DNA of 62,770 nucleotides from an uncultured Candidatus Saccharibacteria bacterium (GCA_964348725.1 CAYGDG010000005.1:1-62770), one strand, 5' to 3'. Counted from the stretch's first letter, positions 16,534 through 56,519 are shown. Program-made: numbers and translations. The notes: generated by a model from the sequence alone, not told the origin.

Positions 16534-18786
16534 ATGTCAAAGAAAGAAAAATCTTCTACAAAAGAATCTAAGCGAGATACAAAAAAACCAAGCAACCTGA
16601 AAACCGAAACAAAGCACGGCATCGCGGCCGTCATATTTTTCGTGCTCGCTTTATTCTTATTCATGGCGGCATTCGGCATAGCGGGAACGGGAGGAAAGTT
16701 CGTATATACAAATTTATATTTCTTGCTCGGCTGGGGTTATGTGCTCTTGCCGGTGCTGTGCATTTTGCTCGGCATTTCTTTTGTGAAAAGCGAGCGCCCG
16801 AATATCGGACTGACCCGCACGCTCTCCGGCGCACTGTTCCTTTTCTCCGGCCTCGGCATCATACAAATAGCATCCGGCTTTCCGGAAACATCCGGCGGCG
16901 CGGGCGGATTTCTCGGCGAAGTAGCCGCTTCGCCGCTCGTATATTTATTTGATATGTATGCCGGCATTATCCTACTCGGCGCGCTCCTCATTATCTCGCT
17001 CCTCGTCATGTTTGACGCAAAGCCAGCGCTCATTCCATTCTTCAAAAATCTCTGGGAAGGCGCGGCGGAAAATAAGAAAAAACTGGATGAAAAATTGGAA
17101 GCCCTCGGCGAAGAGGATGAATACGAAATAACAGGAGTGGAAACGGAGGGTGCTCCCCCTGCGAAGGGGGAGATGCCGAAGGCAGAGGGGGTGAAAGAAA
17201 CAAAAGCACCCCTCCGCTCCGGCAAGCCGGAGCACCTCCCCTTAGCAGGGGAGGAAACCGAAGAAATGCCGATAAAGAAGCGCAAGCACAAAGAAGGCGA
17301 TTATGTTCCCCCGCCGCTCAATTTACTTGAAGAAGATTCGGGTAAGCCGAATACTGGTGATGTGAAAGCGAATGCGAATATCATCAAGCGCACTTTGGCA
17401 AACTTCGGCATTGAAGTAGAAATGGATGAAATCACCGTCGGCCCTTCCATCACTCGCTATGCATTAAAGCCGGCCGAAGGCGTGAAGCTCTCCCGCATTG
17501 TGGGCTTACAAAGTGACCTCGCCCTCGCCCTCGCCGCTCATCCCCTCCGCATTGAAGCTCCTATCCCGGGCAAATCATTGGTAGGTATTGAAATTCCAAA
17601 TAAAACAAAATCAACCGTCGGCCTCGCTACGCTCCTCGGTGATCCAAACTTCCAGAATTCCCCGAATCCCCTTACCATCGCCCTCGGCCGCGGCATTTCC
17701 GGCAAAGCTTCCTTTGGTAACTTGGCTAAAATGCCGCACGCCCTCATCGCGGGAACGACAGGCTCCGGAAAATCCGTTACTATTCACTCTGTCATTACTT
17801 CCCTGCTCTATAGAAATGGTCCGGATGAGCTGAAATTTATCATGGTGGACCCGAAGCGCGTGGAACTTACGCTATATAACAAGATTCCACACCTTTTGAC
17901 CCCTGTCATTACTGAAGCAAAGAAAACTATCCTTGCTCTCAAATGGGCGGCAAAAGAAATGGATCGCCGCTATGATATCTTGCAGGAAGAATCCGTGCGC
18001 GATATCACTTCGTATCATGAAGTGATTGCAAAAGGAGGAAAGAAAATGAAAAAGAATGCCGACGGCACTGAGACTGAAGTAGAACCAGACCGCATGCCGT
18101 ATATCGTCATTATTATAGACGAGCTCGCTGACATCATGATCGCCTACCCGCGCGAACTGGAAAGCGCTATTGTACGCCTGGCTCAAATGTCCCGCGCTGT
18201 GGGCATACACCTTATATTGTCTACCCAGCGTCCGGAAGTGAATGTCATCACTGGCCTCATCAAGGCGAACGTGCCGGCTCGCGTCGCCCTGAAAGTATCT
18301 TCCCAAATAGATTCGCGCACTATATTAGATGCCGGCGGCGCAGAAAAATTGCTCGGTCAGGGAGACATGCTCTATTCTTCGGGCCAAGCCCAGCCGGAGC
18401 GCTTGCAGTCAGCCTACATTACAGAAACAGAAGTGAAGAAAGTCGTAAAATATCTTGCTGATGCGTACAGAGATGAAATTAGCGATGAGATAAATATGAC
18501 TGCCGGCGGCCTCTCGGCTGACAAGAGCATTTTTGAAAGCACATTGGATGATGAAGATGGTGAAGACGATGACGAAATGTATGAAGAAGCGAGGCAGACG
18601 GTCATAGAAGCCGGCAAAGCATCCACTTCATTCCTCCAGCGCAAATTAAAACTCGGCTATGCTCGTGCCGCTCGCCTGATGGATATCCTTGAAGAGCGCG
18701 GCGTCATCGGCCCCGGCGACGGCGCCAAGCCGCGTGAAGTATTGGAGCGAATTGACCGTACGGAAACCGGTGAAAATATAATGTAA
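16534..18786 (+). CDS. ftsK: DNA translocase FtsK/SpoIIIE
   Basis: N-terminal TM helices, IAGTTGSGKS Walker A, IIIDELAD, STQRP, gamma domain ASTSFLQRKLKLGYARAARLMD. Confidence 0.97.
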   Translation: MSKKEKSSTKESKRDTKKPSNLKTETKHGIAAVIFFVLALFLFMAAFGIAGTGGKFVYTNLYFLLGWGYVLLPVLCILLGISFVKSERPNIGLTRTLSGALFLFSGLGIIQIASGFPETSGGAGGFLGEVAASPLVYLFDMYAGIILLGALLIISLLVMFDAKPALIPFFKNLWEGAAENKKKLDEKLEALGEEDEYEITGVETEGAPPAKGEMPKAEGVKETKAPLRSGKPEHLPLAGEETEEMPIKKRKHKEGDYVPPPLNLLEEDSGKPNTGDVKANANIIKRTLANFGIEVEMDEITVGPSITRYALKPAEGVKLSRIVGLQSDLALALAAHPLRIEAPIPGKSLVGIEIPNKTKSTVGLATLLGDPNFQNSPNPLTIALGRGISGKASFGNLAKMPHALIAGTTGSGKSVTIHSVITSLLYRNGPDELKFIMVDPKRVELTLYNKIPHLLTPVITEAKKTILALKWAAKEMDRRYDILQEESVRDITSYHEVIAKGGKKMKKNADGTETEVEPDRMPYIVIIIDELADIMIAYPRELESAIVRLAQMSRAVGIHLILSTQRPEVNVITGLIKANVPARVALKVSSQIDSRTILDAGGAEKLLGQGDMLYSSGQAQPERLQSAYITETEVKKVVKYLADAYRDEISDEINMTAGGLSADKSIFESTLDDEDGEDDDEMYEEARQTVIEAGKASTSFLQRKLKLGYARAARLMDILEERGVIGPGDGAKPREVLERIDRTETGENIM

Positions 18787-18789
18787 CCA

Positions 18790-18826
18790 GAGGCAAGACC
18801 TCCCGTGTGAGGTCTTGCCTCACACA
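18790..18826. repeat. REP-like palindrome family B
   Basis: GAGGCAAGACCTC-CCGTGT-GAGGTCTTGCCTC immediately after the ftsK stop. Confidence 0.85.
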
Positions 18827-18829
18827 AAC

Positions 18830-19246
18830 ATGAATCAAGACGCAAAGAAAGCATTCAAAATAATCGGCGTAATCCTCCTTTTTCTGCTCATCGCTGTATA
18901 CGCTTTCTTCCGCTCGCGCGAGCTCATTTTCGGCGTACAAATCAAAGATGTGAATATTACGGACGGCGCCACATATACAGAAAGCATCGTGCATGTGACC
19001 GGCCGGGCCAAAAATGCTTTAAAATTAACCTTGGATGGACGAGAAATATCCATAGATCAAGAGGGAAATTTTGACGAGACAATCGCCCTGCTTTCAGGGT
19101 ATAATATCATAGCCATAGAAGCTCTCGATAAGTTCGGGCATGTCGATATTAAAAATTATCAGTTAATGTATGAAGCAGAAGTTAGTTTTCCGAACGGTCT
19201 GGCCCCGACTACTGTCGGGGAAAACCGAGGACCTGAGGAAAATTAA
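18830..19246 (+). CDS. Membrane-anchored Ig-like (glucodextranase domain B-like) protein
   Basis: TM helix then VTGRAKNA..LTLDGREISIDQEGNF.ETIALLSGYNII.IEA.DKFG; start refined to MNQDAKK. Confidence 0.75.
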   Translation: MNQDAKKAFKIIGVILLFLLIAVYAFFRSRELIFGVQIKDVNITDGATYTESIVHVTGRAKNALKLTLDGREISIDQEGNFDETIALLSGYNIIAIEALDKFGHVDIKNYQLMYEAEVSFPNGLAPTTVGENRGPEEN

Positions 19247-19261
19247 CTTCTGCGAAACAAT

Positions 19262-20317
19262 ATGAAAGCAAAAAAAGAAAAAGTATTAAAAAGCGTCGGC
19301 AATAAAGCGATAGAAGATACTATCCGCTCTATTCAGACGAAATTCGGCGAAGGCTCCATCATGAAGCTCGGCGATTCACCGAAAGTTGATATCAACGTCA
19401 TCCCCACCGGCTCCATCGGTTTGGATATGGCACTCGGCGTCGGCGGCCTTCCCCGCGGACGCGTCATAGAAATATTCGGCCCTGAATCTTCAGGAAAAAC
19501 GACGCTCACCCTACACGTCATCGCTGAAGCGCAGAAAAAAGGCGGCATCTGCGCCTTCATAGATGCCGAACATGCCATGGATCCCGAATACGCCAAAAAA
19601 CTCGGCGTGAAAATAGAAGACTTGCTCATCTCCCAGCCGGACACCGGCGAGCAGGGGCTTGAAATCTGTGACTCCCTCGTGCGCTCGGGAAAAATTGACG
19701 TCATCGTCATAGACTCCGTGGCCGCCCTCACTCCGAAAGACGAAATAGAAGGCGACATGGGCGCGCACCATGTGGGCAAACAGGCTCGCCTCATGAGCCA
19801 GGCGCTCAGGAAGCTCACTGCCATCGTCGCCCGCACCAAGACCGTCGTCATTTTCATAAACCAGATCCGCATGCAGATCGGCGTGATGTTCGGCAATCCG
19901 GAAACGACAACCGGCGGCAAGGCGCTGAAATTTTACACCTCCGTGCGCTTGGACATCCGCCGCATCGCGTCCATCAAGAAAGGCGAAGAGACCGTCGGCG
20001 CGCGCACCCGCGTGAAAGTGGTAAAGAACAAAGTGGCCTCCCCTTTCAAGCAGACGGAATTTGATATCATCTACGGCGAAGGTATTTCCCGCGAAGGCGA
20101 GCTCATGGCTCTCGGCGAGAAGCTCGGCCTGGTAGAAAAATCCGGCGCGTCGTATTCATACAAAGGCAAAGACGGCAAAGTACCGATGGGCCGCGGCTAT
20201 GACGCCACCCGCACTTGGCTTCGCGAGAACTCAAAGGTCTCCAAAGAAATAGAAAAAGAAGTCCGTAAAAGCTTCGGCTCCATCCAGCCCGCCGCTCCGG
20301 TGAATGAAGAGGAATAA
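19262..20317 (+). CDS. recA: Recombinase RecA
   Basis: [31 protein letters not shown]. Confidence 0.99.
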
Positions 20318-20327
20318 ATAAGTCTTG

Positions 20328-20356
20328 AAAAATCCTGCTTAAAGCAGGATTTTTCT
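20328..20356. terminator. Terminator after recA
   Basis: AAAATCCTGCTT-A-AAGCAGGATTTT. Confidence 0.75.
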
Positions 20357-20417
20357 TACTCTTATGGATTTTATTAAGAAAAAATGATATAGTGATAAAA
20401 ACTAATATATATCTGCC

Positions 20418-20768
20418 ATGGAACACAAACCGGAAAATAGAACTGAAAAACAGCAAGTGGTAGATTTTATTATAGACCACTTGAAAAAGAACAGCAGTAA
20501 AAACATTCAGGAAGAAAAAGTGGTATTTGCCGCCGATCCTGAAAGAACTTTTGATGCGTACCTCGTTGTTGATAAATATCCTAAAGGAATGGTATTAGTT
20601 GAAAACAGGGATATTAAATCTTATAAGAACGTGGAGGAACTTTTCACTCCCCAGGAACTTAAAAATGCGATGCTCGCGGCAGAAGAAAAGTTTGGTCAAT
20701 TTACTGTCAAAAAAAATGTTTTGGGATTTCCTGAGATTTTGAACGGGGGGAAACAAAACTTAAATTAA
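20418..20768 (+). CDS. Hypothetical protein
   Basis: 116-aa ORF filling an otherwise AT-rich gap. Confidence 0.55.
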   Translation: MEHKPENRTEKQQVVDFIIDHLKKNSSKNIQEEKVVFAADPERTFDAYLVVDKYPKGMVLVENRDIKSYKNVEELFTPQELKNAMLAAEEKFGQFTVKKNVLGFPEILNGGKQNLN

Positions 20769-20838
20769 TCCTGTACTGATAGCAAGGTACGGGATTTTTA
20801 TTTGCCTAAAAACGATTTTCTGCTAATATATAGGAATT

Positions 20839-21420
20839 ATGGCACAATTAGAATACAGCGAAATACGAGGCGGAAAAATTATCATTCATGGCGACGAGCC
20901 TTGCGAGGTTGTAGACAGCCACGTGGCGAGAACCCAGCAGAGGAAGCCGCAAAACCAGGTAAAGCTCAAGAGCCTCATCTCCGGCAAGGTCTTCCCCGCC
21001 ACCTATCACGTCTCCGACAAGGCGGACGAAGCGGATATCTCCAAGCGCGAAGTAAAATTTCTTTTCCATAATAAAGGCGAGTATTGGTTCTGCTCCCCTA
21101 CCGATCCTGCAGACAGATTCAAGCTTGACGAAGCACTCCTCGGCAACACCGTAAAATTTCTGAAAGCGAACGAGGTAGTCTCCGCCCTCATCTGGACGGA
21201 CGATGAAGACGAAGAAAAAACCATCGGCCTGAAGCTTCCAATCAAGATGCAATTTAAAGTAAAAGAAGCTCCTCCAGCCGTCCGCGGCGACACCTCCAAA
21301 GGCGGAAACAAACTCATCGTCCTTGAAAACGGCGCGACTATCACCACTCCGATGTTCATCAACGAAGGTGATACTGTGATCATTAATACTGAGACGAATG
21401 AATACGTAGAGAGAGCGTAA
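20839..21420 (+). CDS. efp: Elongation factor P
   Basis: FLFHNKGEYWF, LPIKMQFKVKEAPPAVRGDT, PMFINEGDTVIINTETNEYVER. Confidence 0.93.
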   Translation: MAQLEYSEIRGGKIIIHGDEPCEVVDSHVARTQQRKPQNQVKLKSLISGKVFPATYHVSDKADEADISKREVKFLFHNKGEYWFCSPTDPADRFKLDEALLGNTVKFLKANEVVSALIWTDDEDEEKTIGLKLPIKMQFKVKEAPPAVRGDTSKGGNKLIVLENGATITTPMFINEGDTVIINTETNEYVERA

Positions 21421-21471
21421 CGCCCCACCCCTGACCCCTCCCCATTTTTTATAAAAATAGAGAGGGGAAAT

Positions 21472-21507: not shown

Positions 21508-21523
21508 ACATTTGGAGATTTTT

Positions 21524-24500
21524 TTACTTTCTCTTAAGCTCTTCAATCTCCTTTTGAAGTGCTTCGATCATCTTCTGCTGTTCCTGCATGGCTTTCACCA
21601 TCGGCACAACAAATTCCGCGTAGCGCAATCCGTAGAAATCATTCTCATTCTTCGGAGCATCTACTCCGCTAAAATCATAACCGATTTCTTTGGCTGTTTG
21701 TTCTACCTCCTGCGCGATGAATCCGGATTGAAGGATTGCTCCTTTCAATTTTTCCGAATCTTTCAAGCGCAAGCTGTCCGGCGTACCCAGCTCCCTCGCA
21801 ATGGCATCCATATCAAGGTGATATGTCACCGGTCGTAGTTTCGTGATGAATTCCAAACCTGGCACTTCTGCTTTGATGTCCTTTTTAAAACGAACATCAG
21901 AAACATTCGTCCAGTTTGCGAATCCTCCGATTGAGGAAACAGATGCATCGCCCAAACGAATTTGGTCGCTGGCTGTGATATCAGTGTAGGCACCAAGAGC
22001 AGTGGAGTTGGAATAATTAGTCCCAAAAGGAAATGCCGAAGTTCCTAACGCTGTGTTAAATAAACCAGTCGTATTATTCTGAAGCGCAGCCCATCCGATT
22101 CCGGTGTTGTAACTACCAGTAGTATTACTAGATAAAGCATCATAACCAGAGGCAGTATTTCCATCTCCTGATAAATTACTACTCAATGAATTAAATCCAT
22201 TAGCGGTATTATTTGAACCAGTTGTATTTGAAAACATTGCCAAACATCCATTAACAGAATTAGTCTGTCCGCTTGTATTATTATACAAAGCAGAAGTTCC
22301 AACACCAATGTTGAAACCCCCATCAATATTTTGCCACAAAGAATATGCTCCATTAGCAACATTTCCGCCACCGGTTGTGTTGGAATTAAGTGCTAGATAT
22401 CCAGCCGATACATTAAATGTTCCGTCTGTGTTAGATCCCAGAGCAGCAAAACCTGTGGCAGTATTAAAGTTTCCAATAGTATTAGATACCAATGCTGAAA
22501 CCCCCAAAGCAGTGTTGCAAAATCCAGTAGTATTACTCATAAGTGCTTGATTACCCACTGCTGTATTAGAAGCACCGGTAGTGTTCGCAAATAGTGCAGT
22601 AGAACCAACAGCGGTATTCCAGTTTCCCGTTGTGTTTGAATAAATTGCTTTCCATCCAATACCTGTATTATAACCACCTGTGGTATTTGAATAAAGCGCT
22701 TCATTTCCAAAACCAGAATTGGCATTTCCACTTGTATTGGAATAAAGTGATCCGGAACCAAATGCAGATTCTCCGCTTCCATCTATATTAGAATAGAGTG
22801 AAAGAAACCCAACAGAAACATTATTAGCCCCTATTGTATTTGAAGCCGAAGATCCACTTCCTAGTGCAGTATTCTGACTGCCTGTACTGTTTTGATTAAG
22901 AGCATTACTTCCTATTGCGGTATTTTCAAACCCTGTAGTGTTGTTCATAAGAGACCAACGACCAACAGCTGTATTCCCCCAACCAGAAGTATTTTGCATT
23001 CCAGCAAGAGCACCAATAAAAACACTGGTACCACCATTAGAAGGATTCTCATTTTCACCAGCAAGTGCGCCGATGTAAATAGCGTCGTTACTATTGGTAG
23101 GAACAAATTGTCCTTTAGTCGTAATACTCCAACGAACAGAATTATTAGTTCGGAAATCAATCGGTTGATTGTCTATCGTTCCAATGAAGTTCGTACCTGA
23201 AGTCGTTCCAGAATTTCCAAAAAGTCCCCAGGCATTTTCTGCTCCATCGGCACCAGTTGCACCAGTTTGACCTGTTGCACCGTTTGCGCCATCTAGTCCA
23301 TCAATGCCATCGACACCATCAGTTCCATTAATACCAGCTAAACCCGTATTTCCTGTAGAACCAGTTGGGCCCGTCGCACCGTTTATTCCAGCAGAACCTG
23401 TGGCTCCAGTATTTCCTTGCGCGCCTGTTGAACCATCAAGACCGTTGGTTCCGTTTACACCAGTTGCACCAGTATTACCCGTTGCACCAGTGACGCCGTT
23501 TGTGCCATTTGTCCCAGGAGTTCCCGTCGCGCCGGTGTTACCATTCACTCCGTTAATTCCGTCAGTTCCGTTCACGCCCGCAATTCCTTGCGCGCCTGTT
23601 GAACCAGTGGAACCATTCAGACCATCAACGCCATTCGTACCGTCCATTCCCGGAATTCCAGTCGCTCCAGTGTTACCCGTCGCTCCGTCTATTCCAGCAG
23701 AACCAGTCGGACCAGTAGCTCCGACAGAACCTGTAGCTCCAGTTTCACCTGTGCTTCCATTTGCTCCATCTGAACCATTGATTCCATTGTTGCCAGTTGC
23801 ACCAGTAATACCATCTAGTCCATTAGTACCATTTAATCCAGCCACACCATCAGTACCATTTGTTCCGTCAGTCCCCGAAGGTCCGGTCGGTCCCATTGCG
23901 CCGTTCGTGCCGTTCAATCCATCAATGCCATTTAATCCTGCGGTACCTGTAGCTCCGGTATTACCCATCGCTCCGTTTAATCCAGCAGAACCAGTTACAC
24001 CAGTATTTCCTGTTGCACCATTTATACCAGCAAGACCATCTGAACCATTCAGTCCATTTGCTCCTGTCGGTCCAATGCCACCGTTTGTACCATTCATACC
24101 ATTATTGCCAGTCGGACCTTGCGATCCATTTACACCAGCTACTCCGGTATTTCCTGTAGCGCCAGTTGTGCCATTAGTCCCGTTAATGCCCGCAATTCCT
24201 GTTAATCCAATTGGACCAACATTTCCTTGCAAACCAATTGCGCCTTGCGAACCAGTTGCACCAGTATTTCCATTTATACCATTGACGCCATTTGCGCCGG
24301 TTGGACCTGTAACACCAGTAGAACCATTTACTCCATTCACACCATTTGAACCAGTCGGTCCGGGTGTTCCGGGAGTTCCTGAACTTTCAGCATACAAAGC
24401 ATATGGAACAGAAACAAACTGAACAATTCCTAAAAGGAAATAACTTCCAGTGCCGAAAAAATCGATTTCAACTTGAAACCATTTTTCTCCCTGACTCCAT

Positions 24501-27547: not shown

Positions 27548-27720
27548 TTTTTTGCTTAAAAACCCTTATATTTCTTTATAAAATCTCATTATGGACCTGT
27601 GTGAACCGGAGTCAGAGCCGGCTCAAATGAGATGTTTTGATAGTAGCAAAAATAGGCGGGGATGTAAACCCCTACCCGTCCTCCCCCTTACTAAGGGGGA
27701 GGTGCCGAAGGCGGAGGGGG

Positions 27721-28560
27721 TCAGATTCCGAAAACTCGGCGCGCATTGGCGATGATTGCCGCCGCCACTTCCTCTTCGGGCAAATTCTTTATCTCGGCGA
27801 TTTTTTTCACCACTTCCCGCACATATGCCGGCTCGTTTCGCTTGCCGCGATATGGCACAGGCGTAATATACGGCGAATCAGTTTCGCTCATGATCATATG
27901 CAGGGGCGTCTGTCGTACTACTTCATCATAGTCGTGCGTGAACGTAATGACGCCAGTGAAAGAAAGCGTGAAGCCAAAATCAATGAAGCATTTCGCATCT
28001 TCCAGTGTACCGGCAAAGAAATGCACATCGCCTTTTACTTTTGCGTGAGTTTTTAAAATTTCTAAAGAATCTGTGTATGCGTTTGATTCTTTATTCTCGG
28101 GATTATTTCTTATGTGCAACATGAGGGGCTTCCCTGCTTCATTCGCAATTTCTATTTGCTCAATAAAAGCCTGCTTTTGCTTTTCTATAGATTCCGGTTC
28201 AAGGCGATAATAGTCCAAACCGCATTCGCCGATGCCGACTACTTTTGGATCGCGAAGCATTTCCCTGTATTTTTCCTTATCAAAAATTTCCCCTCGAGAA
28301 GTAAATTCCGCTCCGCCTTCGCCGAGTTCTTTTGTGTCATGGTACGATGCGCCAGTATGTATCGGGTGCAGGCCTACGATGGCGTACACGCCTTCCGGAT
28401 ATTTGTGCGCCAAGTCTATCGCCGCATGCGAAGTGTCCGCCTGCGTGCCCACATTGATGACCCAGGTATCATTCTCCAGCGCACGCGCAACCACCGCTTC
28501 CCGATCCTCGTCAAAAGCTTTGAAATTCACATGGCTGTGTATGTCTATGTATTTAGGCAT
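27721..28560 (-). CDS. tatD: TatD family DNase
   Basis: IDIHSH, VGIGECGLDYY, HFFAG, SETDSPY, RGKRNEP. Confidence 0.95.
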   Translation of the reverse strand: MPKYIDIHSHVNFKAFDEDREAVVARALENDTWVINVGTQADTSHAAIDLAHKYPEGVYAIVGLHPIHTGASYHDTKELGEGGAEFTSRGEIFDKEKYREMLRDPKVVGIGECGLDYYRLEPESIEKQKQAFIEQIEIANEAGKPLMLHIRNNPENKESNAYTDSLEILKTHAKVKGDVHFFAGTLEDAKCFIDFGFTLSFTGVITFTHDYDEVVRQTPLHMIMSETDSPYITPVPYRGKRNEPAYVREVVKKIAEIKNLPEEEVAAAIIANARRVFGI

Positions 28561-32410: not shown

Positions 32411-33739
32411 TTAGCTCATTCGGCTGTGGATGTAGTCGGAGAGTGCGGAGAGCTTTACTCTCTCTTGTGCGCCAGTGTCACGATCGCGCACGGTAACGGT
32501 ATCTAAAAGCTCAGGCTTCTCACCGAGGGTGTCGAAATCAACTACGATACAAAATGGCGTGCCTATTTCGTCCTGGCGGCGGTAGCGTTTGCCAATGTTG
32601 CCATTGTCATCATACGCGATATTACCGAATTCTTTTTTCAGCGCAGCGAAAATTTCCTCTGCTTTCGCGACGAGTTCGTGCTTATTCTTCAGGAGTGGTG
32701 ATACGCAAGCAAGTACGGGCGCGATATTCGGCTTCAGTTTGAGGAATGCGCGTACTTCACCTCCCGCCTCGGCGGGTAAATCTTCAGAGTAGGCGGACAG
32801 AAGCACTGCCAGGAAGGCGCGGTCTGCACCAAATGATGGCTCGATGACGTGCGGAGTCATTTTTGTTTTTGCTTCTTCATCTACATATTCGAGCTTGTGA
32901 TTTTTAAGATCAAAATCTCCACGGTAAGCCAATCCGAAAAGTTCCTTGCGTCCAAATGGGAATTCAAATTCAAAATCCACCGTACGCTTGGAGTAATGCG
33001 CCAGGTCTTCGGGTGCGATGTCCACGGCATGCACTTTTTTCATGTCGATGCCGACACTTTCCATCCATTCGCTCATCTCTTGCTGCCAGAACTCAAATGT
33101 CTTTTCCCATTCTTCCGGGCGGATGAAATATTCTATTTCCATCTGCTCGAATTCACGGGAACGGAAAATAAAATCGCGCGGCGTGATTTCATTCCTGAAT
33201 GCCTTGCCTATCTGCGCCATACCGAATGGGAGCTTTGGATGGTATGCGTCCACCGTATTTTTAAAATTCACAAATATGCCCTGTGCCGTCTCCGGGCGGA
33301 GATATGAAATAGCGGAAGAATCTTCCGAAGCGCCCACTTTCGTCTGGAACATCATGTTGAATTGCTGCGCTGCAGAAAGTTTACCGCCGCAATCAGCGCA
33401 TTTCGTTTTGTCTTCCAGCTGATCAGCGCGAAAACGATGCTTACACTTCTCGCATTCCACCATCGGATCGGCGAAATTTTCCACATGTCCGGCTGCCTGC
33501 CATACTTCCTGCCTCATGAGAATTGCCGCGCGGATGGCATACATATCGGTGCGCTCGGAGACGAAGCGCTTCCACCACGAATTTTTGATGTTATGCAGGA
33601 GCTCCCCGCCCAAGTGGCCGTAGTCGAATGTACCTGCCAAACCGCCGTAAATTTCCGAACCTTGAAATACAAAGCCGCGGCGCTTGCAGAGCGACACTAT
33701 TTTTTCCATTAAATTATCTTCTGTTTTTTCTTTTGACAT
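32411..33739 (-). CDS. glyQS: Glycine-tRNA ligase, alpha2 (GlyQS) type
   Basis: YLRPETAQGIF, GKAFRNEITPR, REFEQMEIEYF, IGKRYRRQDEIGTP. Confidence 0.97.
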   Translation of the reverse strand: MSKEKTEDNLMEKIVSLCKRRGFVFQGSEIYGGLAGTFDYGHLGGELLHNIKNSWWKRFVSERTDMYAIRAAILMRQEVWQAAGHVENFADPMVECEKCKHRFRADQLEDKTKCADCGGKLSAAQQFNMMFQTKVGASEDSSAISYLRPETAQGIFVNFKNTVDAYHPKLPFGMAQIGKAFRNEITPRDFIFRSREFEQMEIEYFIRPEEWEKTFEFWQQEMSEWMESVGIDMKKVHAVDIAPEDLAHYSKRTVDFEFEFPFGRKELFGLAYRGDFDLKNHKLEYVDEEAKTKMTPHVIEPSFGADRAFLAVLLSAYSEDLPAEAGGEVRAFLKLKPNIAPVLACVSPLLKNKHELVAKAEEIFAALKKEFGNIAYDDNGNIGKRYRRQDEIGTPFCIVVDFDTLGEKPELLDTVTVRDRDTGAQERVKLSALSDYIHSRMS

Positions 33740-42014: not shown

Positions 42015-43745
42015 CTACATTCTCTCCGGCATTTTGATGCCGAGGAGGTGAAGACCGGACTGCATCCTGCGAAGAAATGCTTCGGTGAGCGCGAGGTAAT
42101 ACGCAGAAGATTTTTCTTCGCTGATTATTTGGGTGTTACCGTAAAAGGAATTGAATTCGGACGCGAGGGCGGTGAGGTATGTGGTGATATGATGCGGCTC
42201 AAGTTCTTCGTATGCGTGAAGGACGACTTCCGGGAAGCGGTACAGGATTTTTTCTAAATTAGAAACAGTTTCCGGCACTTCGGAAATTTCTTTTTTCGCT
42301 CCGGCTTTGGCGAGCACAGATTTCGCGCGGGTGGCGGAGTATTGGAGATACGGACCGGAATCCCCTTCAAAGGAAATAGACTTCTCAAAATCAAATACAA
42401 TATCCGAACCCATCGCCGATCGGAGGATGGAATATTTGAGGGCGGCTACACCGACAGCTTCAGACACTTCTTTCTTTTGTGCGTCAGAAAAATCTCTGTC
42501 TTTTATTTTCTCCTGGATCATCTCCATAGAATCGCGGAGGAGTGACTCTCCGGTGACGACATTCCCCTTTCGGGAAGACATCTTACCAGAGGCGAGGCGC
42601 ATCATACCGTGCGTGATATGCTTCATCCGGCTTTCGTATTCGGGGTGGATGAGCGAAAGCGCCTTGGCGACCACTTTCATATATTCCGCCTGCTCCACGG
42701 CGGTAGTGACGATGGAGATATCTGGATTTTCTTTTTCAAATTTCGTGACGGTAAGCCCGATTTCTTTCGTCTCATATGTCGGCAAGCCCTGGGAATTGAT
42801 GAATACGCGGGTGTGCAATTTTGGATCATACTTCTCTCCTCTAAAAATTATCGCGGCGCCTGCCCCGTAGGAAGTACTCTTTCCTTCGGGGTCTGATTCT
42901 TCAAATACTTTACCTAAATTCTCGCGTACTATCTTTTCGCCGATAGGTGCCATCACACTTTCAAAGAAATAGTGATCAAATTTTGTGCCGAGGAGCGCAT
43001 AGATTTCTTCAAAGGCTTCCAGCGTCGCCTTTTTGCCCCAGTCATAAATCTGATTCACCATCGCATCACTCCGGTCATATATTTTTTTATTGAAAGCTTC
43101 TATTTCCTTTTTTGCTTCCGGGTCATTATCATATGCGTCCGAGCCTTTCGCATAGCACTCACCAATATATTGCGCAATGACGGATGCAGATGCGCTTTCG
43201 TCTGCCGGAGCGCCGGCTTTGTACATACCGTACATCGCCTTTGCCACGTGCGGGCCGACATCGCCCTGATAATTCGCGCGCACGGTTTTTGCCCCAGAGA
43301 ATTCCACGATCCTGGAAATGGATTCGCCGATGGCATTGCTCATCAGGTGGCCGATGTGGAATGGCTTGAAAGGGTTCGGCTGGGTGTATTCCACCATCAC
43401 CTTTTTTCCGGCAAGCATTTCATTCTTGCCCCAGTTGTCGCCTTTATTTAAAATGTCTTTAACAGATTCTGCGAAAAATTCTCGTGTTAAGTAGAAATTT
43501 ATAAAGCCTGCCCCGGCGACTTCTATTTTCATTATTTCCTGTGCAGAATTTTTTTGTAATTCATTCACCATCTTCTCCGCCAGTTCTTTCGGATTCATTT
43601 TCTCGCGCTTGGCGAGCACCATAGCCACATTCGTGGAATAGTCCCCATTCTTCAAATCCTCCGGATGCTCCACAGTAAAATTCGCCTCGGCGATACCGAG
43701 ATTTTTGAGTGCTTCGTTAATTAAAATTTTTATTTTTTGTTCCAT
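42015..43745 (-). CDS. argS: Arginine-tRNA ligase
   Basis: VEYTQPNPFKPFHIGHL, KMSSRKG, FEGDSGPYLQY; start refined to MEQKIK. Confidence 0.97.
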   Translation of the reverse strand: MEQKIKILINEALKNLGIAEANFTVEHPEDLKNGDYSTNVAMVLAKREKMNPKELAEKMVNELQKNSAQEIMKIEVAGAGFINFYLTREFFAESVKDILNKGDNWGKNEMLAGKKVMVEYTQPNPFKPFHIGHLMSNAIGESISRIVEFSGAKTVRANYQGDVGPHVAKAMYGMYKAGAPADESASASVIAQYIGECYAKGSDAYDNDPEAKKEIEAFNKKIYDRSDAMVNQIYDWGKKATLEAFEEIYALLGTKFDHYFFESVMAPIGEKIVRENLGKVFEESDPEGKSTSYGAGAAIIFRGEKYDPKLHTRVFINSQGLPTYETKEIGLTVTKFEKENPDISIVTTAVEQAEYMKVVAKALSLIHPEYESRMKHITHGMMRLASGKMSSRKGNVVTGESLLRDSMEMIQEKIKDRDFSDAQKKEVSEAVGVAALKYSILRSAMGSDIVFDFEKSISFEGDSGPYLQYSATRAKSVLAKAGAKKEISEVPETVSNLEKILYRFPEVVLHAYEELEPHHITTYLTALASEFNSFYGNTQIISEEKSSAYYLALTEAFLRRMQSGLHLLGIKMPERM

Positions 43746-43746
43746 A

Positions 43747-44172
43747 TTACTTATGCCCCGTGCTTCCTTCTCTGCCTGCACCGCGAACCGTATCAGAAAG
43801 CTCGTCTGCTTCTACAATATCACAATGCTCAAACTTTTGTATGAGCATCTGCGCGACCTTGTGCCCTTTTTCTATCACAAAATCTTTATCCGACAAATTT
43901 TTTAAAGTTATGACTATTTCACCCCGATAGCACGCATCATATACTCCGCCCATTACTTTCAAGCCATTTTTGCAAGCAATACTGCTCTTGTCCCACAAAA
44001 GTCCGGCATATCCTTCCGGAATTTCTATCGCCACACCAGTACATACTTGGGCCTGCATACCTACCGTAAAATGTACGGTCTCATTCGCATAAAAATCCAT
44101 CCCCGCATCGCCCGGATGCCCGTGCGTCGGCAGCTTTGCGTCTTCGTGCAGTTTTTTAACTTTGAGTTTCAT
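43747..44172 (-). CDS. dut: dUTP diphosphatase
   Basis: GDAGMDF, GGVYDACYRGE, AQMLIQ, RG.G..GSTG; start refined to MKLKVKK overlapping the tmk stop. Confidence 0.93.
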   Translation of the reverse strand: MKLKVKKLHEDAKLPTHGHPGDAGMDFYANETVHFTVGMQAQVCTGVAIEIPEGYAGLLWDKSSIACKNGLKVMGGVYDACYRGEIVITLKNLSDKDFVIEKGHKVAQMLIQKFEHCDIVEADELSDTVRGAGREGSTGHK

Positions 44173-49472: not shown

Positions 49473-49486
49473 GCTATAATAGTAGC

Positions 49487-50077
49487 ATGAACAAGTTTGA
49501 AGAAAAGAAATTCAATATCCCTGAATTACAGGGTATTTCAAAGAAAAATATAGAAGAACACCTAAAGCTCTATGCGGGCTATGTAAAAAATGTAAATCTT
49601 ATCATAGAAAAAATGGCTGTTTTAGATAGTGAAAAAGACGCATATATCGTGGGTGAGCTTTTCCGCCGTTTTTCTTTTGAATACAACGGCATGCGAAATC
49701 ATGAAATTTATTTTTCTAGTTTAGAAAATGGAGCAAAAGCATTTAATGGAGAAAGTGAGCTCGGTAAAAGACTTTTGGAATTGTTTGGAACTTTTGAAAA
49801 ATTTATTTCGGAATTTACAAATCTCGCACTCACTCGCGGCGTCGGCTGGGCAGTATTGTGGTATGACAAAAAAGAAAAAAGATTTTTGGCATCGTGGGTG
49901 GACGAACAGCACCTCGGCCAATTAAACGGTTGCGAAATGATCCTCGCTCTTGATATGTGGGAGCATGCTTTCGTCTATGACTATCCTACTTCTGAAAAGA
50001 AAAAATACGTAAAAAGTTTTTTTGAAAATCTAAACTGGGAGAAAATAGAAGAAAATTTTATTGAAACTATAAAGTAA
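49487..50077 (+). CDS. Fe/Mn superoxide dismutase family protein
   Basis: EEH..LY.GYV, NHEIYF, GWAVL, DMWEHA. Confidence 0.88.
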   Translation: MNKFEEKKFNIPELQGISKKNIEEHLKLYAGYVKNVNLIIEKMAVLDSEKDAYIVGELFRRFSFEYNGMRNHEIYFSSLENGAKAFNGESELGKRLLELFGTFEKFISEFTNLALTRGVGWAVLWYDKKEKRFLASWVDEQHLGQLNGCEMILALDMWEHAFVYDYPTSEKKKYVKSFFENLNWEKIEENFIETIK

Positions 50078-50120
50078 AAAACGGAGTGATCAACTCCGTT
50101 TTCTTTAAATAAGCAATTCT

Positions 50121-50342
50121 TCAATCCAATAGCAAGGGTCGTGTATAGAGTAATTGCTGAGACCTTCTCAGCTTTATTTTTGCTGCAATATCCAAAGGTT
50201 TTAATTCCTTATAAATTTGCGCAAAGGTTTTCCTTGTTTCTTCTTTTGAGAAACATTGCATCTTCCCTTGTTTATTCAATTCGTTAAGTTGATCTTTGTA
50301 TTCTTGTTCGGATCTTTGAAGATTCTTTAGATTTGAAGCCAT
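50121..50342 (-). CDS. Hypothetical protein
   Basis: 73 aa with strong AGGAGG ribosome-binding site. Confidence 0.55.
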   Translation of the reverse strand: MASNLKNLQRSEQEYKDQLNELNKQGKMQCFSKEETRKTFAQIYKELKPLDIAAKIKLRRSQQLLYTRPLLLD

Positions 50343-51470: not shown

Positions 51471-51631
51471 AAATCCAGTGATTAGAAATAAAACGGAACA
51501 CCGAGTTCCGTTTTTTTATTTTCCTAAAATCAACTTACTTCTGAAAAGAAAAAATATATAGGAGCATTTTTTGAAAAATAAAAATCCCTCATATCTCAGA
51601 GGGATTTTTTTGATTGCACAATAGTTACTTA

Positions 51632-52129: not shown

Positions 52130-52186
52130 ATTATCCTCCTTTTTTTATGAAGTTTACAAAAATTTGATTACTTAATTTATACTATA

Positions 52187-53656
52187 TCATTCCGGAAAAA
52201 TCAACTTTTTAATACTGTCTCCGAACAGCTTATACACAAACCACACATAGATACCGAGCGTCAGCATCAGCGGGAAATTTGGTATGGCGAATGCCGCAAA
52301 GGGTAGGCCGGAGAAGAAATCAATGGCGAATAATTCGTAATGGAGCAGGAGGAACGAAATCTTGCCGAGGAGGAGGGAAAGGAAAGAAGAAACGAAGCCA
52401 GCGAAGCCTGAAAGAAAGCCGAATATCATCGTGAGTGGGATAAATGGCAGGACGGCGATGTTTGCGGGCAAGGCGACGAGCGAGAGATTCCCCATTTTGT
52501 ACAAAATAAATGGCAGGACAAAAATGTATGCGGCGAAAGTGACAGAAATAATGTCCCGCAGGAAATGCCATTTGATAAATTGAAAATATTTTTCCGTGCG
52601 CGGCGCGAGGTATATGACGGCGACAGTAGCGATGAATGACAACTGGAAAGACACATCAAATGCCAACACAAACGGATTGAAAATAATCATCACGATACCC
52701 GCGAGGAGTAATGCCCTGCCCACATCATAATTCCTGCCCGTTTGCCGAGCTATTAAGGCGAGTGTCGCCATTATCCCTGCCCGGACTGCGGTAGATTGCC
52801 CACCAGCCATAATCACAAAAAGAAAAATTCCCACAATTCCCGCCCAAATTCCCATATTGCGAGGAAGCCAAGAAAATAATTTCATTATCCACTCGGCGAT
52901 GATGGTGACATTGTAGCCAGAGAGCGCCACGATGTGTATCGTACCCGTGTCTATGAATTTCTGCCGCATCTCCTGACTGAATGATGCCCGCTCGCCGAGG
53001 ATCAGCCCACCCATGAGCAAGCTCTCCGGCTCGGGAATGGCGAAGTTTACCTTGTCCATAAATTTGTTTTTGGCAAAAAAGAGGGCGCGCTTTATGGGAT
53101 TGCCATTGCCGCGCGAAATGATTTCAATATCCGGATAGCTCGCGATATATCTAATACCGTCCTTCCGCAGATAGTTCACATAATCAAATTCCTTACCGGT
53201 ATCGGTCAAAAAGTTCTCCGGCTTTTCAAGTTTTCCGGAAAATTTTATTTCATCGCCATATTTATATTCCCTGCCGAGGGCTACCGTCGCCAACACTTCT
53301 GTTTTTTCTTTACCCGCACGGATTTCAATATTTAATTTCTGATTATTTTCTCTCCTGTCCGGTTCATCCACCAACATGCCAGTAAATTCTGTTTTCTGCC
53401 CGACTTTTGATTCAAAAACTTGTGGCGCCGGTTTGTCCGCAAGATGAAATCGGAAAATTCCGAGTGATAATGCCAGCACCGCGCAGGAAAGAATGATACC
53501 CCATTTGTTTTTTGAAATCAGTGCAAAGAAAAATAATAAGAAAAAAGAAATAGCGCCCAGAGCAAGCGCCGTGAAGATATCTATGGAGAAAAATGAGCGC
53601 AACAATACGCCGAGCGCGAAACCAAAGCAAGAAAAATAAAAAATCCTATCCCGCAT
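52187..53656 (-). CDS. comEC: ComEC competence channel (DUF4131/OB plus Competence domain)
   Basis: GTIHIVALSGYNV, SAVRAGIM, SFQLSF.AT, ANI.VLP. Confidence 0.93.
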   Translation of the reverse strand: MRDRIFYFSCFGFALGVLLRSFFSIDIFTALALGAISFFLLFFFALISKNKWGIILSCAVLALSLGIFRFHLADKPAPQVFESKVGQKTEFTGMLVDEPDRRENNQKLNIEIRAGKEKTEVLATVALGREYKYGDEIKFSGKLEKPENFLTDTGKEFDYVNYLRKDGIRYIASYPDIEIISRGNGNPIKRALFFAKNKFMDKVNFAIPEPESLLMGGLILGERASFSQEMRQKFIDTGTIHIVALSGYNVTIIAEWIMKLFSWLPRNMGIWAGIVGIFLFVIMAGGQSTAVRAGIMATLALIARQTGRNYDVGRALLLAGIVMIIFNPFVLAFDVSFQLSFIATVAVIYLAPRTEKYFQFIKWHFLRDIISVTFAAYIFVLPFILYKMGNLSLVALPANIAVLPFIPLTMIFGFLSGFAGFVSSFLSLLLGKISFLLLHYELFAIDFFSGLPFAAFAIPNFPLMLTLGIYVWFVYKLFGDSIKKLIFPE

Positions 53657-54128
53657 AGCTCGCGAGCTCTGCCGGCATATTGTCGGCGAAGCTCGTGGCT
53701 ATCTGGTCTGCTCGTTCATTATGAATAATTCCTGAATGCCCTGCTACATAAGTCCACTTCGGCTTCAATTCTTGAGTTAAGGCGTGCAGTTCTTCCCATA
53801 GTTCCTTATTCACCACCGGCTTCTTCGCCGCATTCCGCCAGCCATTTTTCATCCAGCCGTGGATCCATTCCGTAATTCCAATAATCACATATTTTGAATC
53901 GCTGAAAATCTCCACCTGCGTTAGGTCTTGCCTAACGCACTTCTGCTGAAGGTATTTCAAAGCACCGATAGGCGCAGAAAGCTCCATCTGATTATTCGTC
54001 GCCTTTTCCGCCCCGCCGCCTATCTCCTGCACCTTCCCCTCGCCGAAAATAATGACCGCGCCCCATCCCGCCGGACCCGGATTCCCCCTCGCCGCCCCGT
54101 CGGTATAAATGATTATCTTTTCTGACAT
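53646..54128 (-). CDS. rnhA: Ribonuclease HI
   Basis: YTDGAARGNPGPAGWG, TNNQMEL, SDSKYV, AGHSG...NERAD. Confidence 0.96.
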   Translation of the reverse strand: MSEKIIIYTDGAARGNPGPAGWGAVIIFGEGKVQEIGGGAEKATNNQMELSAPIGALKYLQQKCVRQDLTQVEIFSDSKYVIIGITEWIHGWMKNGWRNAAKKPVVNKELWEELHALTQELKPKWTYVAGHSGIIHNERADQIATSFADNMPAELASYAG

Positions 54129-54174
54129 CCGAGCATTATATCAGAAAAGCCAGCCATATAAAAAAGCAGCCTCG

Positions 54175-54777
54175 TTATTCACGAGGCTGTAATGTTTTAC
54201 GAAAGAAAAATATAATTCCCCCGTCCAGAACTATTGCTCCAAAAATATCCAGCAAATAATGCTGCTTTGTGGTCAGTGTGGAAATAATTATCGCCAACGA
54301 CCAGAGCCAGACCAGAATGACAGATGCTCTACTTGCACCTTTGACACCAAGTTGATAGCAGGTGCCGAAGAGCAGCGCTACCGCCACATGAAGCGAAGGC
54401 AGGCAATTCGCAGGCGTATCCAGCGTCCGGAACATATCCATCAATATATTTTGTTCTGAATAACATTCCCTCGGATATGCCGTCGGGAACGAAATAAAAA
54501 ACATAATATGCAACGACACGATGATTCCTAGTATTGAAAAGATACTCGGAAAAATAGAGCGGTGCACTTTAGAAAAAAGGAACGTCCCTTGCATGAATAC
54601 AGACAGATAAATTAAAATCGTCCATGGTAGGAAAGGAATGTTCTCTTCTCCAAAAATAAATGGGAGAGTGGTATGCATTGCGGAAATATGATTTACCGCC
54701 AAGTACGGCAGGTAGAAAATTACGAGGATGCTTATCATTAGCACCCATCTTTCGGATTGAGTGATAATTTTTCGCAT
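54175..54777 (-). CDS. PAP2/AUR1-like membrane phosphoesterase or lipid phosphotransferase
   Basis: PTAYPR, CLPSLHV, TKQHYLLD. Confidence 0.8.
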   Translation of the reverse strand: MRKIITQSERWVLMISILVIFYLPYLAVNHISAMHTTLPFIFGEENIPFLPWTILIYLSVFMQGTFLFSKVHRSIFPSIFSILGIIVSLHIMFFISFPTAYPRECYSEQNILMDMFRTLDTPANCLPSLHVAVALLFGTCYQLGVKGASRASVILVWLWSLAIIISTLTTKQHYLLDIFGAIVLDGGIIFFFRKTLQPRE

Positions 54778-54851
54778 GTTGTATATTTTAGAAGTAGTTT
54801 TTAAATGAAAGGATTTCTAAAAGAATAGCACTTTTATAAGTAAAAGTCAAG

Positions 54852-56519
54852 TTAGACTACATCCGTTATTCGCAATCGCAATTCCACCCTGCCGGCAAAA
54901 CGGGAAAGGTCAAAGGTGGCAAGGAGATTTATAGGAAGACCTTCGGCAATCGGAGCGGAAAAGGATTCCGGACCGGCGAAGAATGAAACGGCCTTGCCTT
55001 TACCGGTGGCATCCGAAAGCAGGAGTTCAATGTGCTCAGTGGCTTTGCCGAATTTTTTTATTTTTTCTACCTTTACGCCTTCAAAGAGGAAGACGGGCTT
55101 CGGGTTGCCTTCGCCGAAGGGGGCGAGCTTTTCCAGCTCGCTGTAATTCCGCAAGTTCACATCCGCCAGATTTATTTTCGCATCATAGGCGGCATTTTTT
55201 TCTTTCACTTTCTTCTCGGCTTTCATAAATGAGGCGGACAAGGCATCTTCAAGGAAATGTATCTTGTCATTATGCACAGAAAATCCGCCCGCGCCTTCGT
55301 GCCCGCCGAATGCGGAAAAGTGCTCACTGCTCGCGGTCATGAGTTCCACTACGGACACTGTGCCATCCGAGCGACACGAGCCTTTGATGATGTCATTCTC
55401 ATCCCTGCCCCACACGAAAGCGGGCTTTTTGTATGTGTCGGTGATTTTGCCGGCGACCAATCCCAAGACGCCGATGCGCCACGCGGGATTGCCAATGACG
55501 ATAACTTCGCGCATTTCCTCCACCGGACTACTGCTAAATTTTTTATTCACTTCGCGCATAATACCTGCCACCATCAGCTTGCGCTCGTCATTGATGTCTG
55601 ACAGATGCTCCGCCAATGCTCCCGCTTCACTATCTTCTTTTGCAGACAAGAGCTCAAATGCGCGGCGCGGATCGCTCATCCGTGAAGCGGCATTGAGCCG
55701 CGGGGTGAGCATATAGCCGATATCATCCTCGGAAAGGAATTTCTGGTCTATCTTTGCTTTGGCGAGAAGTTTCTGAAGGCCGGGACGCGGTGATTTGCGG
55801 AGTACCTTCATTCCAAAGTGCGCGATGGCACGATTCTCGCCAAGGAGCGGCACCATATCCGAAAGTGTAGCAAGCCCTGCCATATCCAAGAGCCACTTTT
55901 CCGCGCCTTCTTTTATCTTGAAATATTCTCCGTATTTTTTGATAAAGCCCTGCGCTAATTTAAATGCCACGCCCGCACCACAGAGCATCTTCTCCACATA
56001 TTCATCGCACTTGGGATTCAAAATAGCATACGCGCGCGGCAATATTGCCGGCGGGAGGTGATGGTCTGTAATGATGACATCCATCCCGAGCACTTCCGCC
56101 TGCGCCACTTCGGCAACAGCGGTAATTCCCAAATCAATAGTGATGATGAGTTTCACATCATTTTTCGCAAATTCTTGTATGGCCGCGAGGTTCAAGCCGT
56201 ACCCTTCGGAATTCCTTTGCGGAATGTATACTTCAACTTGCCCGCCGTGGAGGGAATTTTCATAGCCGCAGAGCTTGAATAAGTCCGACAGAATGACCGC
56301 GCCCGGAATACCATCACAGTCATAGTCAGCAAAAATCAGTATTTTTTCTTTGGCTTCCATCGCCTCAAAAATCCGTACGCAGGATTTTTCCATATCGCGC
56401 ATGAGGAATGGGTCATGAAAATCGCGCTCATAGCTCGGCACGAGGAATGCTTCACGCATATCGGCGGAAATTCCCCTCTTTTCCAGCAAATTATTCAATA
56501 AATCCGAGCTATTTCCCAT
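54852..56519 (-). CDS. recJ: Single-stranded DNA exonuclease RecJ
   Basis: DYDCDG, ITDHH, DMVPL, PRLNAASR, GGHEGAGG, PFGEGNP. Confidence 0.95.
   Translation of the reverse strand: MGNSSDLLNNLLEKRGISADMREAFLVPSYERDFHDPFLMRDMEKSCVRIFEAMEAKEKILIFADYDCDGIPGAVILSDLFKLCGYENSLHGGQVEVYIPQRNSEGYGLNLAAIQEFAKNDVKLIITIDLGITAVAEVAQAEVLGMDVIITDHHLPPAILPRAYAILNPKCDEYVEKMLCGAGVAFKLAQGFIKKYGEYFKIKEGAEKWLLDMAGLATLSDMVPLLGENRAIAHFGMKVLRKSPRPGLQKLLAKAKIDQKFLSEDDIGYMLTPRLNAASRMSDPRRAFELLSAKEDSEAGALAEHLSDINDERKLMVAGIMREVNKKFSSSPVEEMREVIVIGNPAWRIGVLGLVAGKITDTYKKPAFVWGRDENDIIKGSCRSDGTVSVVELMTASSEHFSAFGGHEGAGGFSVHNDKIHFLEDALSASFMKAEKKVKEKNAAYDAKINLADVNLRNYSELEKLAPFGEGNPKPVFLFEGVKVEKIKKFGKATEHIELLLSDATGKGKAVSFFAGPESFSAPIAEGLPINLLATFDLSRFAGRVELRLRITDVV

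Follow-up and report, generated by a model that had tools for sequence, protein, structure and literature searches.

Short hairpin repeats read in frame within loops of housekeeping enzymes in a Nomurabacteria genome

Hairpins inside five housekeeping genes

The 62.8-kb stretch of DNA analysed here (62,770 nucleotides; hereinafter, the window) is the entire contig C5 of a draft metagenome-assembled genome (MAG) of the lineage Candidatus Nomurabacteria (Paceibacteria, Patescibacteria), designated G000 and comprising 957 kb in 26 contigs. Five genes of the window, identified with Pfam profiles, encode FtsK (16534-18786, plus strand) and, on the minus strand, class II glycyl-tRNA synthetase (GlyRS, 32411-33739), arginyl-tRNA synthetase (ArgRS, 42015-43781), RNase HI (53646-54128) and RecJ (54852-56519), and each contains short hairpin-forming sequences that are translated as part of the protein; the remaining coding sequences (CDS) are crude calls of the longest open reading frame (ORF). 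A first-pass annotation, made from the sequence alone, had quoted hairpins in these five genes, and all of them are present in frame and at the positions it gave, with the peptides APPAKGEMPKAEGV and APLRSGKPEHLPLAGEE in FtsK, LPAEAG in GlyRS, DPEGKSTSYGA in ArgRS, CVRQDLTQ in RNase HI and SLHGGQ in RecJ. Its proposal that repeated hairpins are inserted into loops of essential proteins is supported by alignment of the host genes with 26-28 genomes from the same genus and order, in which the additional residues of ArgRS, RecJ and GlyRS, 11, 6 and 3 amino acids, respectively, lack a counterpart and thus represent lineage-specific additions. The repeats are real; however, they do not belong to a single family resembling repetitive extragenic palindromic (REP) sequences, as had been implied, but rather to four kinds of element, namely, the triplex-type families A and D, a GC-rich palindrome with the consensus CCCGCC-NN-GGCGGG, a class of hairpins with the core AGG-TCTTG-CCT, and a 33-nt bulged hairpin in ArgRS that has no second copy in the G000 genome.

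In codon alignments, the inserts in ArgRS and RecJ are clean blocks of 33 and 18 nt, respectively, each with both arms of its hairpin inside. The ArgRS insert (CCCGAAGGAAAGAGTACTTCCTACGGGGCAGGC, 42858..42890, minus strand), which is read PEGKSTSYGAG, lies between ESD and (G)AI.F and folds into the bulged hairpin CCCCG-a-AGGAA / TTCCT-a-CGGGG; among the genomes aligned, these 11 residues are found in G000 only, and they are without counterpart in 26 + 74 species-level relatives. ArgRS was modelled with AlphaFold2 from 45 sequences (mean predicted local distance difference test score, pLDDT, 89.2; predicted TM-score, pTM, 0.89). In the model, residues 297-307 are located between two strands (293-295 and 311-314) and pLDDT falls below 50 at 300-306, and the insert is predicted to be a floppy extension of the tip of a beta-hairpin. 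A second ArgRS loop, approximately 12 residues upstream of the ESD site, carries the lineage-specific inserts AVSSPHSRR, LIDAPDSKM and DKPDS in the congeners G008, G018 and G010. The RecJ insert (TCCCTCCACGGCGGGCAA, 56238..56255, minus strand), read SLHGGQ, is likewise confined to G000, with no counterpart in 27 relatives, and corresponds to a gap in the alignment with the RecJ structure 8y30, in line with placement in a loop; another relative, G025, has a 9-aa insert of its own at the same spot. This element is a one-mismatch member of the CCCGCC family, and the similarity noted in the first-pass annotation, between the reverse complement of 56237-56254 and positions 15639-15656, holds for 17 of the 18 bases.

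The CCCGCC-NN-GGCGGG family consists of palindromes of 18-20 nt that occur at 26 sites in the G000 genome. The GlyRS member (TTA-CCCGCC-ga-GGCGGG, 32760..32780, minus strand) is read DLPAEAG and is located in the linker preceding the anticodon-binding domain, where the net gain compared to the relatives is 3 aa (SED-LPA-EAGGE); the relative G014 has its own insert in this linker. The unit is identical at 23 of 23 positions to C9 32424-32446, within DnaK (kDLPAEAGgs), and near-identical units are present in GrpE, CysRS, ThrRS, UvrD, TopoI and the CCA-adding enzyme. Altogether, at least 18 copies reside in housekeeping genes identified by Pfam, the hosts being, in addition to GlyRS and RecJ, GAPDH, ATP synthase gamma, MetAP, MiaA, TopoI, Dus, UvrD, the CCA-adding enzyme (twice), ThrRS, UvrB, IF-2, GrpE, DnaK, CysRS and a Mur ligase. 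The copies share two types of flanks, which are read DLPA(V/E/G)AG or PARRGG.

The abundance of these palindromes was compared with a control in which synonymous codons were shuffled within each crude ORF, with the protein and the codon usage kept. With one mismatch at most, 25 of the 26 CCCGCC sites fall within crude CDS, compared to 3.96±1.9 (maximum, 9) in 100 shuffles, and the three frames are used in the ratio 14:10:1 (chi-square p = 0.005). For all crude CDS together, there are 56 perfect stems of at least 10 bp versus 8.6±2.6 after shuffling, and 24 stems of at least 12 bp versus 0.47; shuffled codons, which the first-pass annotation had named as a possible source of equally strong palindromes, do not produce them. 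The number of 14-mers common to at least three genes (168 versus 24±5) is a noisy measure, with only about 27 of the 168 coming from the hairpin families, and for this reason we rely on the family-specific CCCGCC control instead.

In RNase HI, the hairpin TGCGTTAGG-tcttg-CCTAACGCA (53917..53939, minus strand; CVRQDLTQ) occupies the loop between helix A and strand D and falls in a gap of the alignment with a solved structure, as the RecJ insert does. The length of this loop differs in nearly every relative, and in G000 the loop is 6 residues longer than in RNase HI of E. coli. A different hairpin is found in this loop in each of G000, G011, G014, G015 and G018, the last one being a family A element with a GGGTGAGGT tail, and 14 of 14 nucleotides of the G000 hairpin match C1 96161-96174. 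The description of these events as insertions is accurate for the clean blocks of ArgRS and RecJ but less so for GlyRS and RNase HI, where the sequence seems to have been partly overwritten, with units of 18-23 nt and a net gain of only 3 aa.

The FtsK linker contains two family D elements in inverted orientation, both similar to the PIT/TMECO motifs of E. coli. Element a (17153..17193, plus strand; read APPAKGEMPKAEGV) has the form CTCCCCCT-gcga-AGGGGGAG followed by a mini-hairpin, TGCC-gaa-GGCA, and a tail of purines, GAGGGGGTG, in mirror symmetry to the 3' arm of the hairpin; element b (17207..17254, minus strand; read APLRSGKPEHLPLAGEE) has the form CCTCCCCT-gcta-AGGGGAGG, with a nested 18-nt hairpin, GCTCCGGC-tt-GCCGGAGC, in the spacer and the tail GGAGGGGTG. 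Copies of family D were defined by BLAST and each was inspected directly. For element a, these are an intergenic copy in the window (27680..27721, plus strand; CCTCCCCCTTA-c-TAAGGGGGAGG, then tgccgaaggc and GGAGGGGGT; 29 nt, 93%), C13 8432-8457 in a RluA-type pseudouridine synthase (26/26), C1 117138-117157, and C10 2550-2569 in RecG; for element b, C13 8364-8385 agrees at 21 of 22 positions. The linker is variable and cannot be aligned across the relatives, and similar C-rich/G-rich hairpins are present in the FtsK linkers of G006, G007, G008, G009 and G014 only, most relatives being without them. Family A, with the block order CCCCTCTCCTTA-a-TAAGGAGAGGGG-nnn-GGGTGAGGTTCT and approximately 16 copies, is commoner than family D, and the elements of both families are about 40-48 nt long.

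Turnover at an ArgRS codon boundary

Exactly at the D|G boundary that is occupied in the ArgRS of G000, 3 of 77 further species-level relatives contain a different insert of 11 residues, of the PTPEQAQNGQR type. Together with G000, these insert-bearers take up scattered positions on the tree, and the sister of each of the four lacks an insert. Among the best 120 ArgRS homologues from a collection of 5.8 billion proteins, this boundary is filled in 21, with 5 inserts of the PEGK type, 15 of the PT type and 1 other. Fitch parsimony requires 16 changes of insert presence, compared to a mean of 19.7 with shuffled labels, so that there is almost no phylogenetic signal in the presence of the insert. 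A single ancestral insert followed by vertical descent is ruled out by the trees.

Two ArgRS sequences from different strains, P0032 and P0070, are identical in all 567 shared residues, the insert being the sole difference. At the DNA level (99.9% identity), they are separated by 3 mismatches over 2337 nt and a single gap of 33 nt (...gatgaatctga[CCCTACTCCTGAGCAGGCTCAGAACGGGCAACG]tgg...), and comparison of the filled and empty alleles reveals neither a repeated flank nor a target duplication. For the PEGK type, a corresponding pattern is found in P0010 and P0049, which are 97% identical. Insertion without duplication of the target fits the chemistry of HUH/Y1 enzymes of the IS200/IS605 type, and the filled and empty ArgRS site conforms to it in this respect. 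On the 5' side of seven sites, the sequence terminates in ..GA or ..AA (TCAGA, TCTGA, TCCGA, AGTGA, CTTGA, ATTAA), too small a number to define a fixed tetra- or pentanucleotide next to the insertions. Insertion had been described as ongoing in the first-pass annotation, and the filled/empty pair speaks for this; the ArgRS insert of G000 itself, however, is not demonstrably recent because homologues with 78% and 69% identity carry it as well.

In these two homologues, 31 of the 33 bases of the insert are identical to those in G000, and the third codon positions agree at 11/11 and 10/11, respectively, whereas the remaining DNA of the host gene is 73% and 68% identical and, outside the insert, conserved residues share a codon in only half of the cases. 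Judging from these nucleotides, the hairpin appears to be either held constant or re-copied. Constancy would be natural if the hairpins were selected in place, as signals for mRNA pausing, processing or stability or as protein-binding sites; under this view, insert nucleotides 94% identical in host genes of 68-73% identity, with third positions almost invariant, the reuse of one boundary by different hairpins, and the non-random 14:10:1 frame use of the CCCGCC family would all reflect function. Nevertheless, selection in place seems unlikely to us, given that approximately 80% of the ArgRS orthologues and most of the RecJ, GlyRS and RNase HI relatives lack any hairpin, that presence or absence differs between two near-identical strains, and that the same element recurs in unrelated genes. 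Furthermore, a scan of the window with Rfam yielded no family matches at the hairpins. A tRNA scan found zero tRNA genes in the window and hence none at the hairpins.

A search of 301 genomes of the order with the pattern of the ArgRS hairpin was positive in 3 other genomes. In the congener G215, 35 nt of the G000 ArgRS, GACCCCGAAGGAAAGAGTACTTCCTACGGGGCAGG, are identical and in the same reading frame within the gene for Fpg/MutM (read DPEGKSTSYGAG); the Fpg gene of G000 is without this element, and the ArgRS of G215, which matches that of G000 at 61% identity over 1716 versus 1764 bases, appears to be without the insert, as judged from the identity and the matched length rather than from the site itself. 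In G088, which belongs to a different family, GatC contains a variant of the hairpin that retains both the stems and the mismatched position (NPEGKQISYGAG). The same GatC (L155) has, directly after the PEGK-type hairpin, an unrelated hairpin, GCCCCCACACCAAAAATTTTGGTGTGGGGGC, so that two elements stand in tandem in one small protein. Recurrence in unrelated genes is not limited to this kind of element: the RNase HI hairpin of G000 is present, with 19 of 19 nt identical and in the same frame (VRQDLT), within the ArgRS of another Nomurabacteria species (P0010/P0049; L269/L270), where it encodes aa 64-71 of the N-terminal domain (ATCGTTAGGCAAGACCTAACGAT, read IVRQDLTM).

These copies bear on a second explanation, in which each insert arose once and then spread between lineages by homologous recombination, that is, gene conversion of short segments of ArgRS, RecJ and similar genes. 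The near-absence of phylogenetic signal, the high conservation of the flanks FxESD and GAIVFH, which offer homology, and an insert better conserved than its host gene are what such a process could leave behind. Yet, it accounts neither for the presence of one element in Fpg and GatC, or of the RNase HI hairpin in ArgRS, nor for two or three unrelated inserts at a single boundary; moreover, host genes that are 25-35% divergent in DNA are a poor substrate, and the codons flanking the ArgRS inserts are divergent between the insert-bearing lineages. Of the explanations considered here, we regard this one as the least probable.

A third possibility is that the palindromes are generated in situ, by local template switching or correction of quasi-palindromes in fast-evolving loops, without any insertion from elsewhere. 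Five unrelated hairpins in one RNase HI loop of five relatives and the variable loop lengths in all relatives are compatible with such an origin, and so is GlyRS, which gains only 9 nt, the added TTACCCGCC being approximately the complement of the sequence that follows. As a general explanation, it is nonetheless improbable, slightly more so than selection in place, in view of the identical sequences of 19-35 nt in unrelated genes of other species, the 26 copies of the CCCGCC family with shared flanks, the filled/empty pair that differs by a clean 33-nt block unrelated to its flanks, and the inclusion of both hairpin arms in the inserted blocks of ArgRS and RecJ. For ArgRS, RecJ and FtsK, we reject an origin by template switching, which is largely refuted in these cases.

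RAYT genes and other repeat-bearing stretches

The RNase HI hairpin belongs to a class that combines the constant AGG-TCTTG-CCT with a variable stem, the stems seen being GTGTG, (A)CTTGG and TGCGTT; the identity of its core with that of family B, which had been claimed at the outset, is borne out by the shared loop and closing pairs. Given that the 9-mer core of family B, GGTCTTGCC, is confounded by the codons for the GKT of Walker A motifs, only copies that form hairpins were counted. An intergenic member, GAGGCAAGACCTC..GTGTGAGG-tcttg-CCTCACAC, is located directly downstream of ftsK (18790..18825) and is the same hairpin, with the GTGTG stem, as that found on both sides of a RAYT gene on contig C12.

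Genes of the family PF01797 (IS200-like Y1 transposase, RAYT) number three in G000 and are present in 23 of 31 relatives, with up to 11 in each; these relatives have genomes of 0.4-0.9 Mb. The gene on C12 (23421-24074; 36 bits versus a PF01797 cut-off of 23) is bracketed by the hairpins TGTGAGG-TCTTG-CCTCACA at 23378-23396 and 24068-24090, which have the same loop and closing pairs as the RNase HI hairpin. This is the arrangement characteristic of REPtrons, namely, a Y1/HUH gene flanked on both sides by its cognate hairpin, and among the kinds of element described here, it was found for the AGG-TCTTG-CCT class only. A second RAYT-like gene, on C3 (49641-50300), has TGTCCAGGCCCGGCCTGGACA on both sides (49608-50334) and holds a copy of this flanking palindrome inside its own reading frame (50119-50137).

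Several other stretches of the window are rich in repeats. An ORF of 289 aa without a Pfam match (15473..16342, minus strand) contains five different repeat copies, namely, the CCCGCC family member at 15639-15656, a family B copy that is a 36-nt perfect palindrome (15721-15756), a family A hairpin with a GGGTGAGGTTCT tail (15855-15894), a perfect 46-nt palindrome (16079-16124) and a family D-like hairpin (16253-16275). The C-terminus of the encoded protein resembles a winged-helix domain; the ORF could be either a genuine gene full of repeats or a graveyard of repeats that has stayed open by chance. An intergenic triplex-type element similar to family A is located at 3047..3093 (plus strand; CCCCTCTCCATTT-caata-AAATGGAGAGGGG, then tcag and GGGTGAGGTTAT). 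A further family of palindromes, TGCTTCCGCAAGGAC-a-GTCCTTGCGGAAGCA, is found at 7781-7811, 7991-8021 and 9485-9515, in a gene-poor stretch rich in terminator-like hairpins, with more copies on C1 (34831-34855) and C14. At the edge of the window, the 5' end of a 23S rRNA gene (1-525, minus strand) runs off the start of the contig. The small contigs C15, C19-C21 and C23-C26 of this MAG have a G+C content of 55-68%, compared to about 45% in the large contigs, and may be contamination of the bin or else mobile or foreign DNA.

Origin of the hairpins and relationship to known repeats

We propose, with an estimated probability of about 0.78, that the hairpin repeats are very small non-autonomous mobile or copy-converted elements that are filtered by selection into permissive loops. 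Under this scenario, short copies of a hairpin would land, or be copied, into coding DNA without duplication of the target, and selection would then remove those that break the frame, add a stop codon or disrupt a structured part of an essential protein. The survivors would be in frame, with a length that is a multiple of three, encode peptides rich in P, G, A, E, S and K, and reside in a few permissive surface loops and linkers; with so few tolerant loops, the same ones would be occupied repeatedly by different hairpins. The recurrence of the loops would thus be due mainly to selection rather than to targeting, and the movers would probably be RAYT-type enzymes or, for the families without a flanking RAYT gene, another enzyme.

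Several observations weigh against this proposal. The CCCGCC family, family D and the ArgRS hairpin are all absent from the flanks of the three RAYT genes of G000, which leaves three of the four kinds without an assigned mover. The copy numbers, 1-26 per family, are low compared to those of classical REPs, and neither the hairpins beside the RAYT genes nor the CCCGCC family show a GTAG or CGTC end tag, GTAG being present only inside the ArgRS stem (CCCC-GTAG-GAA). In GlyRS and RNase HI, the gain in residues falls short of the length of the element, which fits replacement or conversion better than simple insertion, and the P0032/P0070 pair is compatible with insertion and with precise excision alike. 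Finally, with genes called crudely as the longest ORFs, copies other than those in the annotated hosts may in some cases lie between genes rather than in CDS.

The exact reuse of a codon boundary, the equal length of unrelated inserts and the conservation of the insert nucleotides leave room for a process that goes beyond random insertion and selection, namely, an enzyme-driven, site-selective mechanism, RAYT-like or other, that copies or replaces cassettes of 18-33 nt in Nomurabacteria and probably in Patescibacteria at large. The cassettes involved have lengths that are multiples of three, are free of stops in the frames used, and would be cleanly gained and removed, with no duplication of the target, at precise codon boundaries in loops of essential proteins. 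We advance this more specific possibility only tentatively, considering it plausible but on balance doubtful.

Among the known systems, REP/REPIN-RAYT modules, or REPtrons (PMC2817692, PMC3116915, PMC3337134), resemble the present case in that a PF01797 gene has its own hairpin on either side and further copies are dispersed over the genome. However, REP sequences are predominantly extragenic and abundant, whereas the copies in G000 are few and largely intragenic, the stems vary while the loop and the closing pairs remain constant, and three of the four kinds lack a flanking RAYT; REPtrons are also marked by a tetranucleotide, GTAG or CGTC, that is conserved at an end of the hairpin (PMC3733652). 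A closer parallel is provided by intragenic REPs, such as RPE-4 and RPE-6 of Rickettsia conorii and the GTAG- and CGTC-tagged REPs of Opitutus terrae, which are stem-loops of 20-40 nt within DNA repair, replication and tRNA synthetase genes; they are in frame, frequently come as dimers, and are considered tolerable where the protein is modular or forms a loop (Di Nocera et al. 2013, PMC3733652). The hairpins of G000 are likewise short stem-loops that are read in frame within the same classes of genes; they differ in their occurrence in Patescibacteria, in the lack of a visible GTAG or CGTC end tag and in units as short as 18 nt, as well as in a CCCGCC family that is coding at 25 of 26 sites, the reuse of a codon boundary and the filled/empty pair at the level of strains.

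The palindromic elements of Rickettsia of the RPE-1 type are repeats of approximately 100-150 bp that encode a conserved peptide of 30-50 aa and are found in frame in Rickettsia genes (Ogata et al., reviewed in PMC10969869). Both lineages have reduced genomes in which palindromic repeats occur in frame in housekeeping genes unrelated to one another, and do so where the protein fold allows it (as predicted for the RPE peptide and as indicated by the loop placement in G000), but the elements described here are smaller, at 18-48 nt (6-16 aa), belong to several unrelated families, at least one of which is linked to a RAYT gene, and come from a different lineage.

Families A and D, in turn, share with the PIT, BoxC and TMECO elements the order of a C-rich arm, a short loop, a G-rich arm, a second loop and a G-rich mirror block, and in both groups the elements occur as inverted pairs. 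The TMECO consensus is CCCTCNCCC-N3-6-GGGNGAGGG-N3-GGGNGAGGG, with a first loop of 3-6 nt and a second of 3 nt, and the PIT/TMECO motif has been shown by circular dichroism and NMR to form an intramolecular triplex (PMC4666352). Family A, which reads CCCCTCTCCTTA-a-TAAGGAGAGGGG-cag-GGGTGAGGTT, follows this block order, and so do the family D copies of FtsK, except that their second loop is longer (12-19 nt) and is itself a hairpin; the likeness concerns the sequence and the computed folding of the hairpin. Unlike TMECO, which is reported to be always intergenic in E. coli K-12 (PMC4666352), the motifs described here form part of translated genes, among them those for FtsK, RecG and a pseudouridine synthase.

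In its general kind, then, the phenomenon is already known from intragenic REPs and RPEs, and the elements of G000 are apparently a miniature, unpublished version of such coding palindromes; in the literature searched, no paper connects REPs, RAYTs or in-frame palindromes with Patescibacteria, CPR or Parcubacteria. Three features were found in no paper: the repeated filling of one codon boundary of an essential enzyme by different hairpins, a clean filled/empty pair in near-identical strains without target duplication, and hairpin nucleotides that are much better conserved than the gene around them. Substrates are defined and candidate enzymes are available, which makes the mechanism by which very short repeats of the hairpin and triplex types spread testable. 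Annotators and phylogeneticists should be aware that indels in the marker genes of Patescibacteria can be mobile DNA devoid of phylogenetic signal. With translated hairpins in at least 20 identified housekeeping genes, the elements are pervasive in a genome of 1 Mb with almost no spare DNA, and they steadily supply reduced genomes with new peptides in loops. If the site-selective mechanism were to prove true, these would be the smallest mobile cassettes known, forming a high-turnover system within the essential genes of these bacteria.

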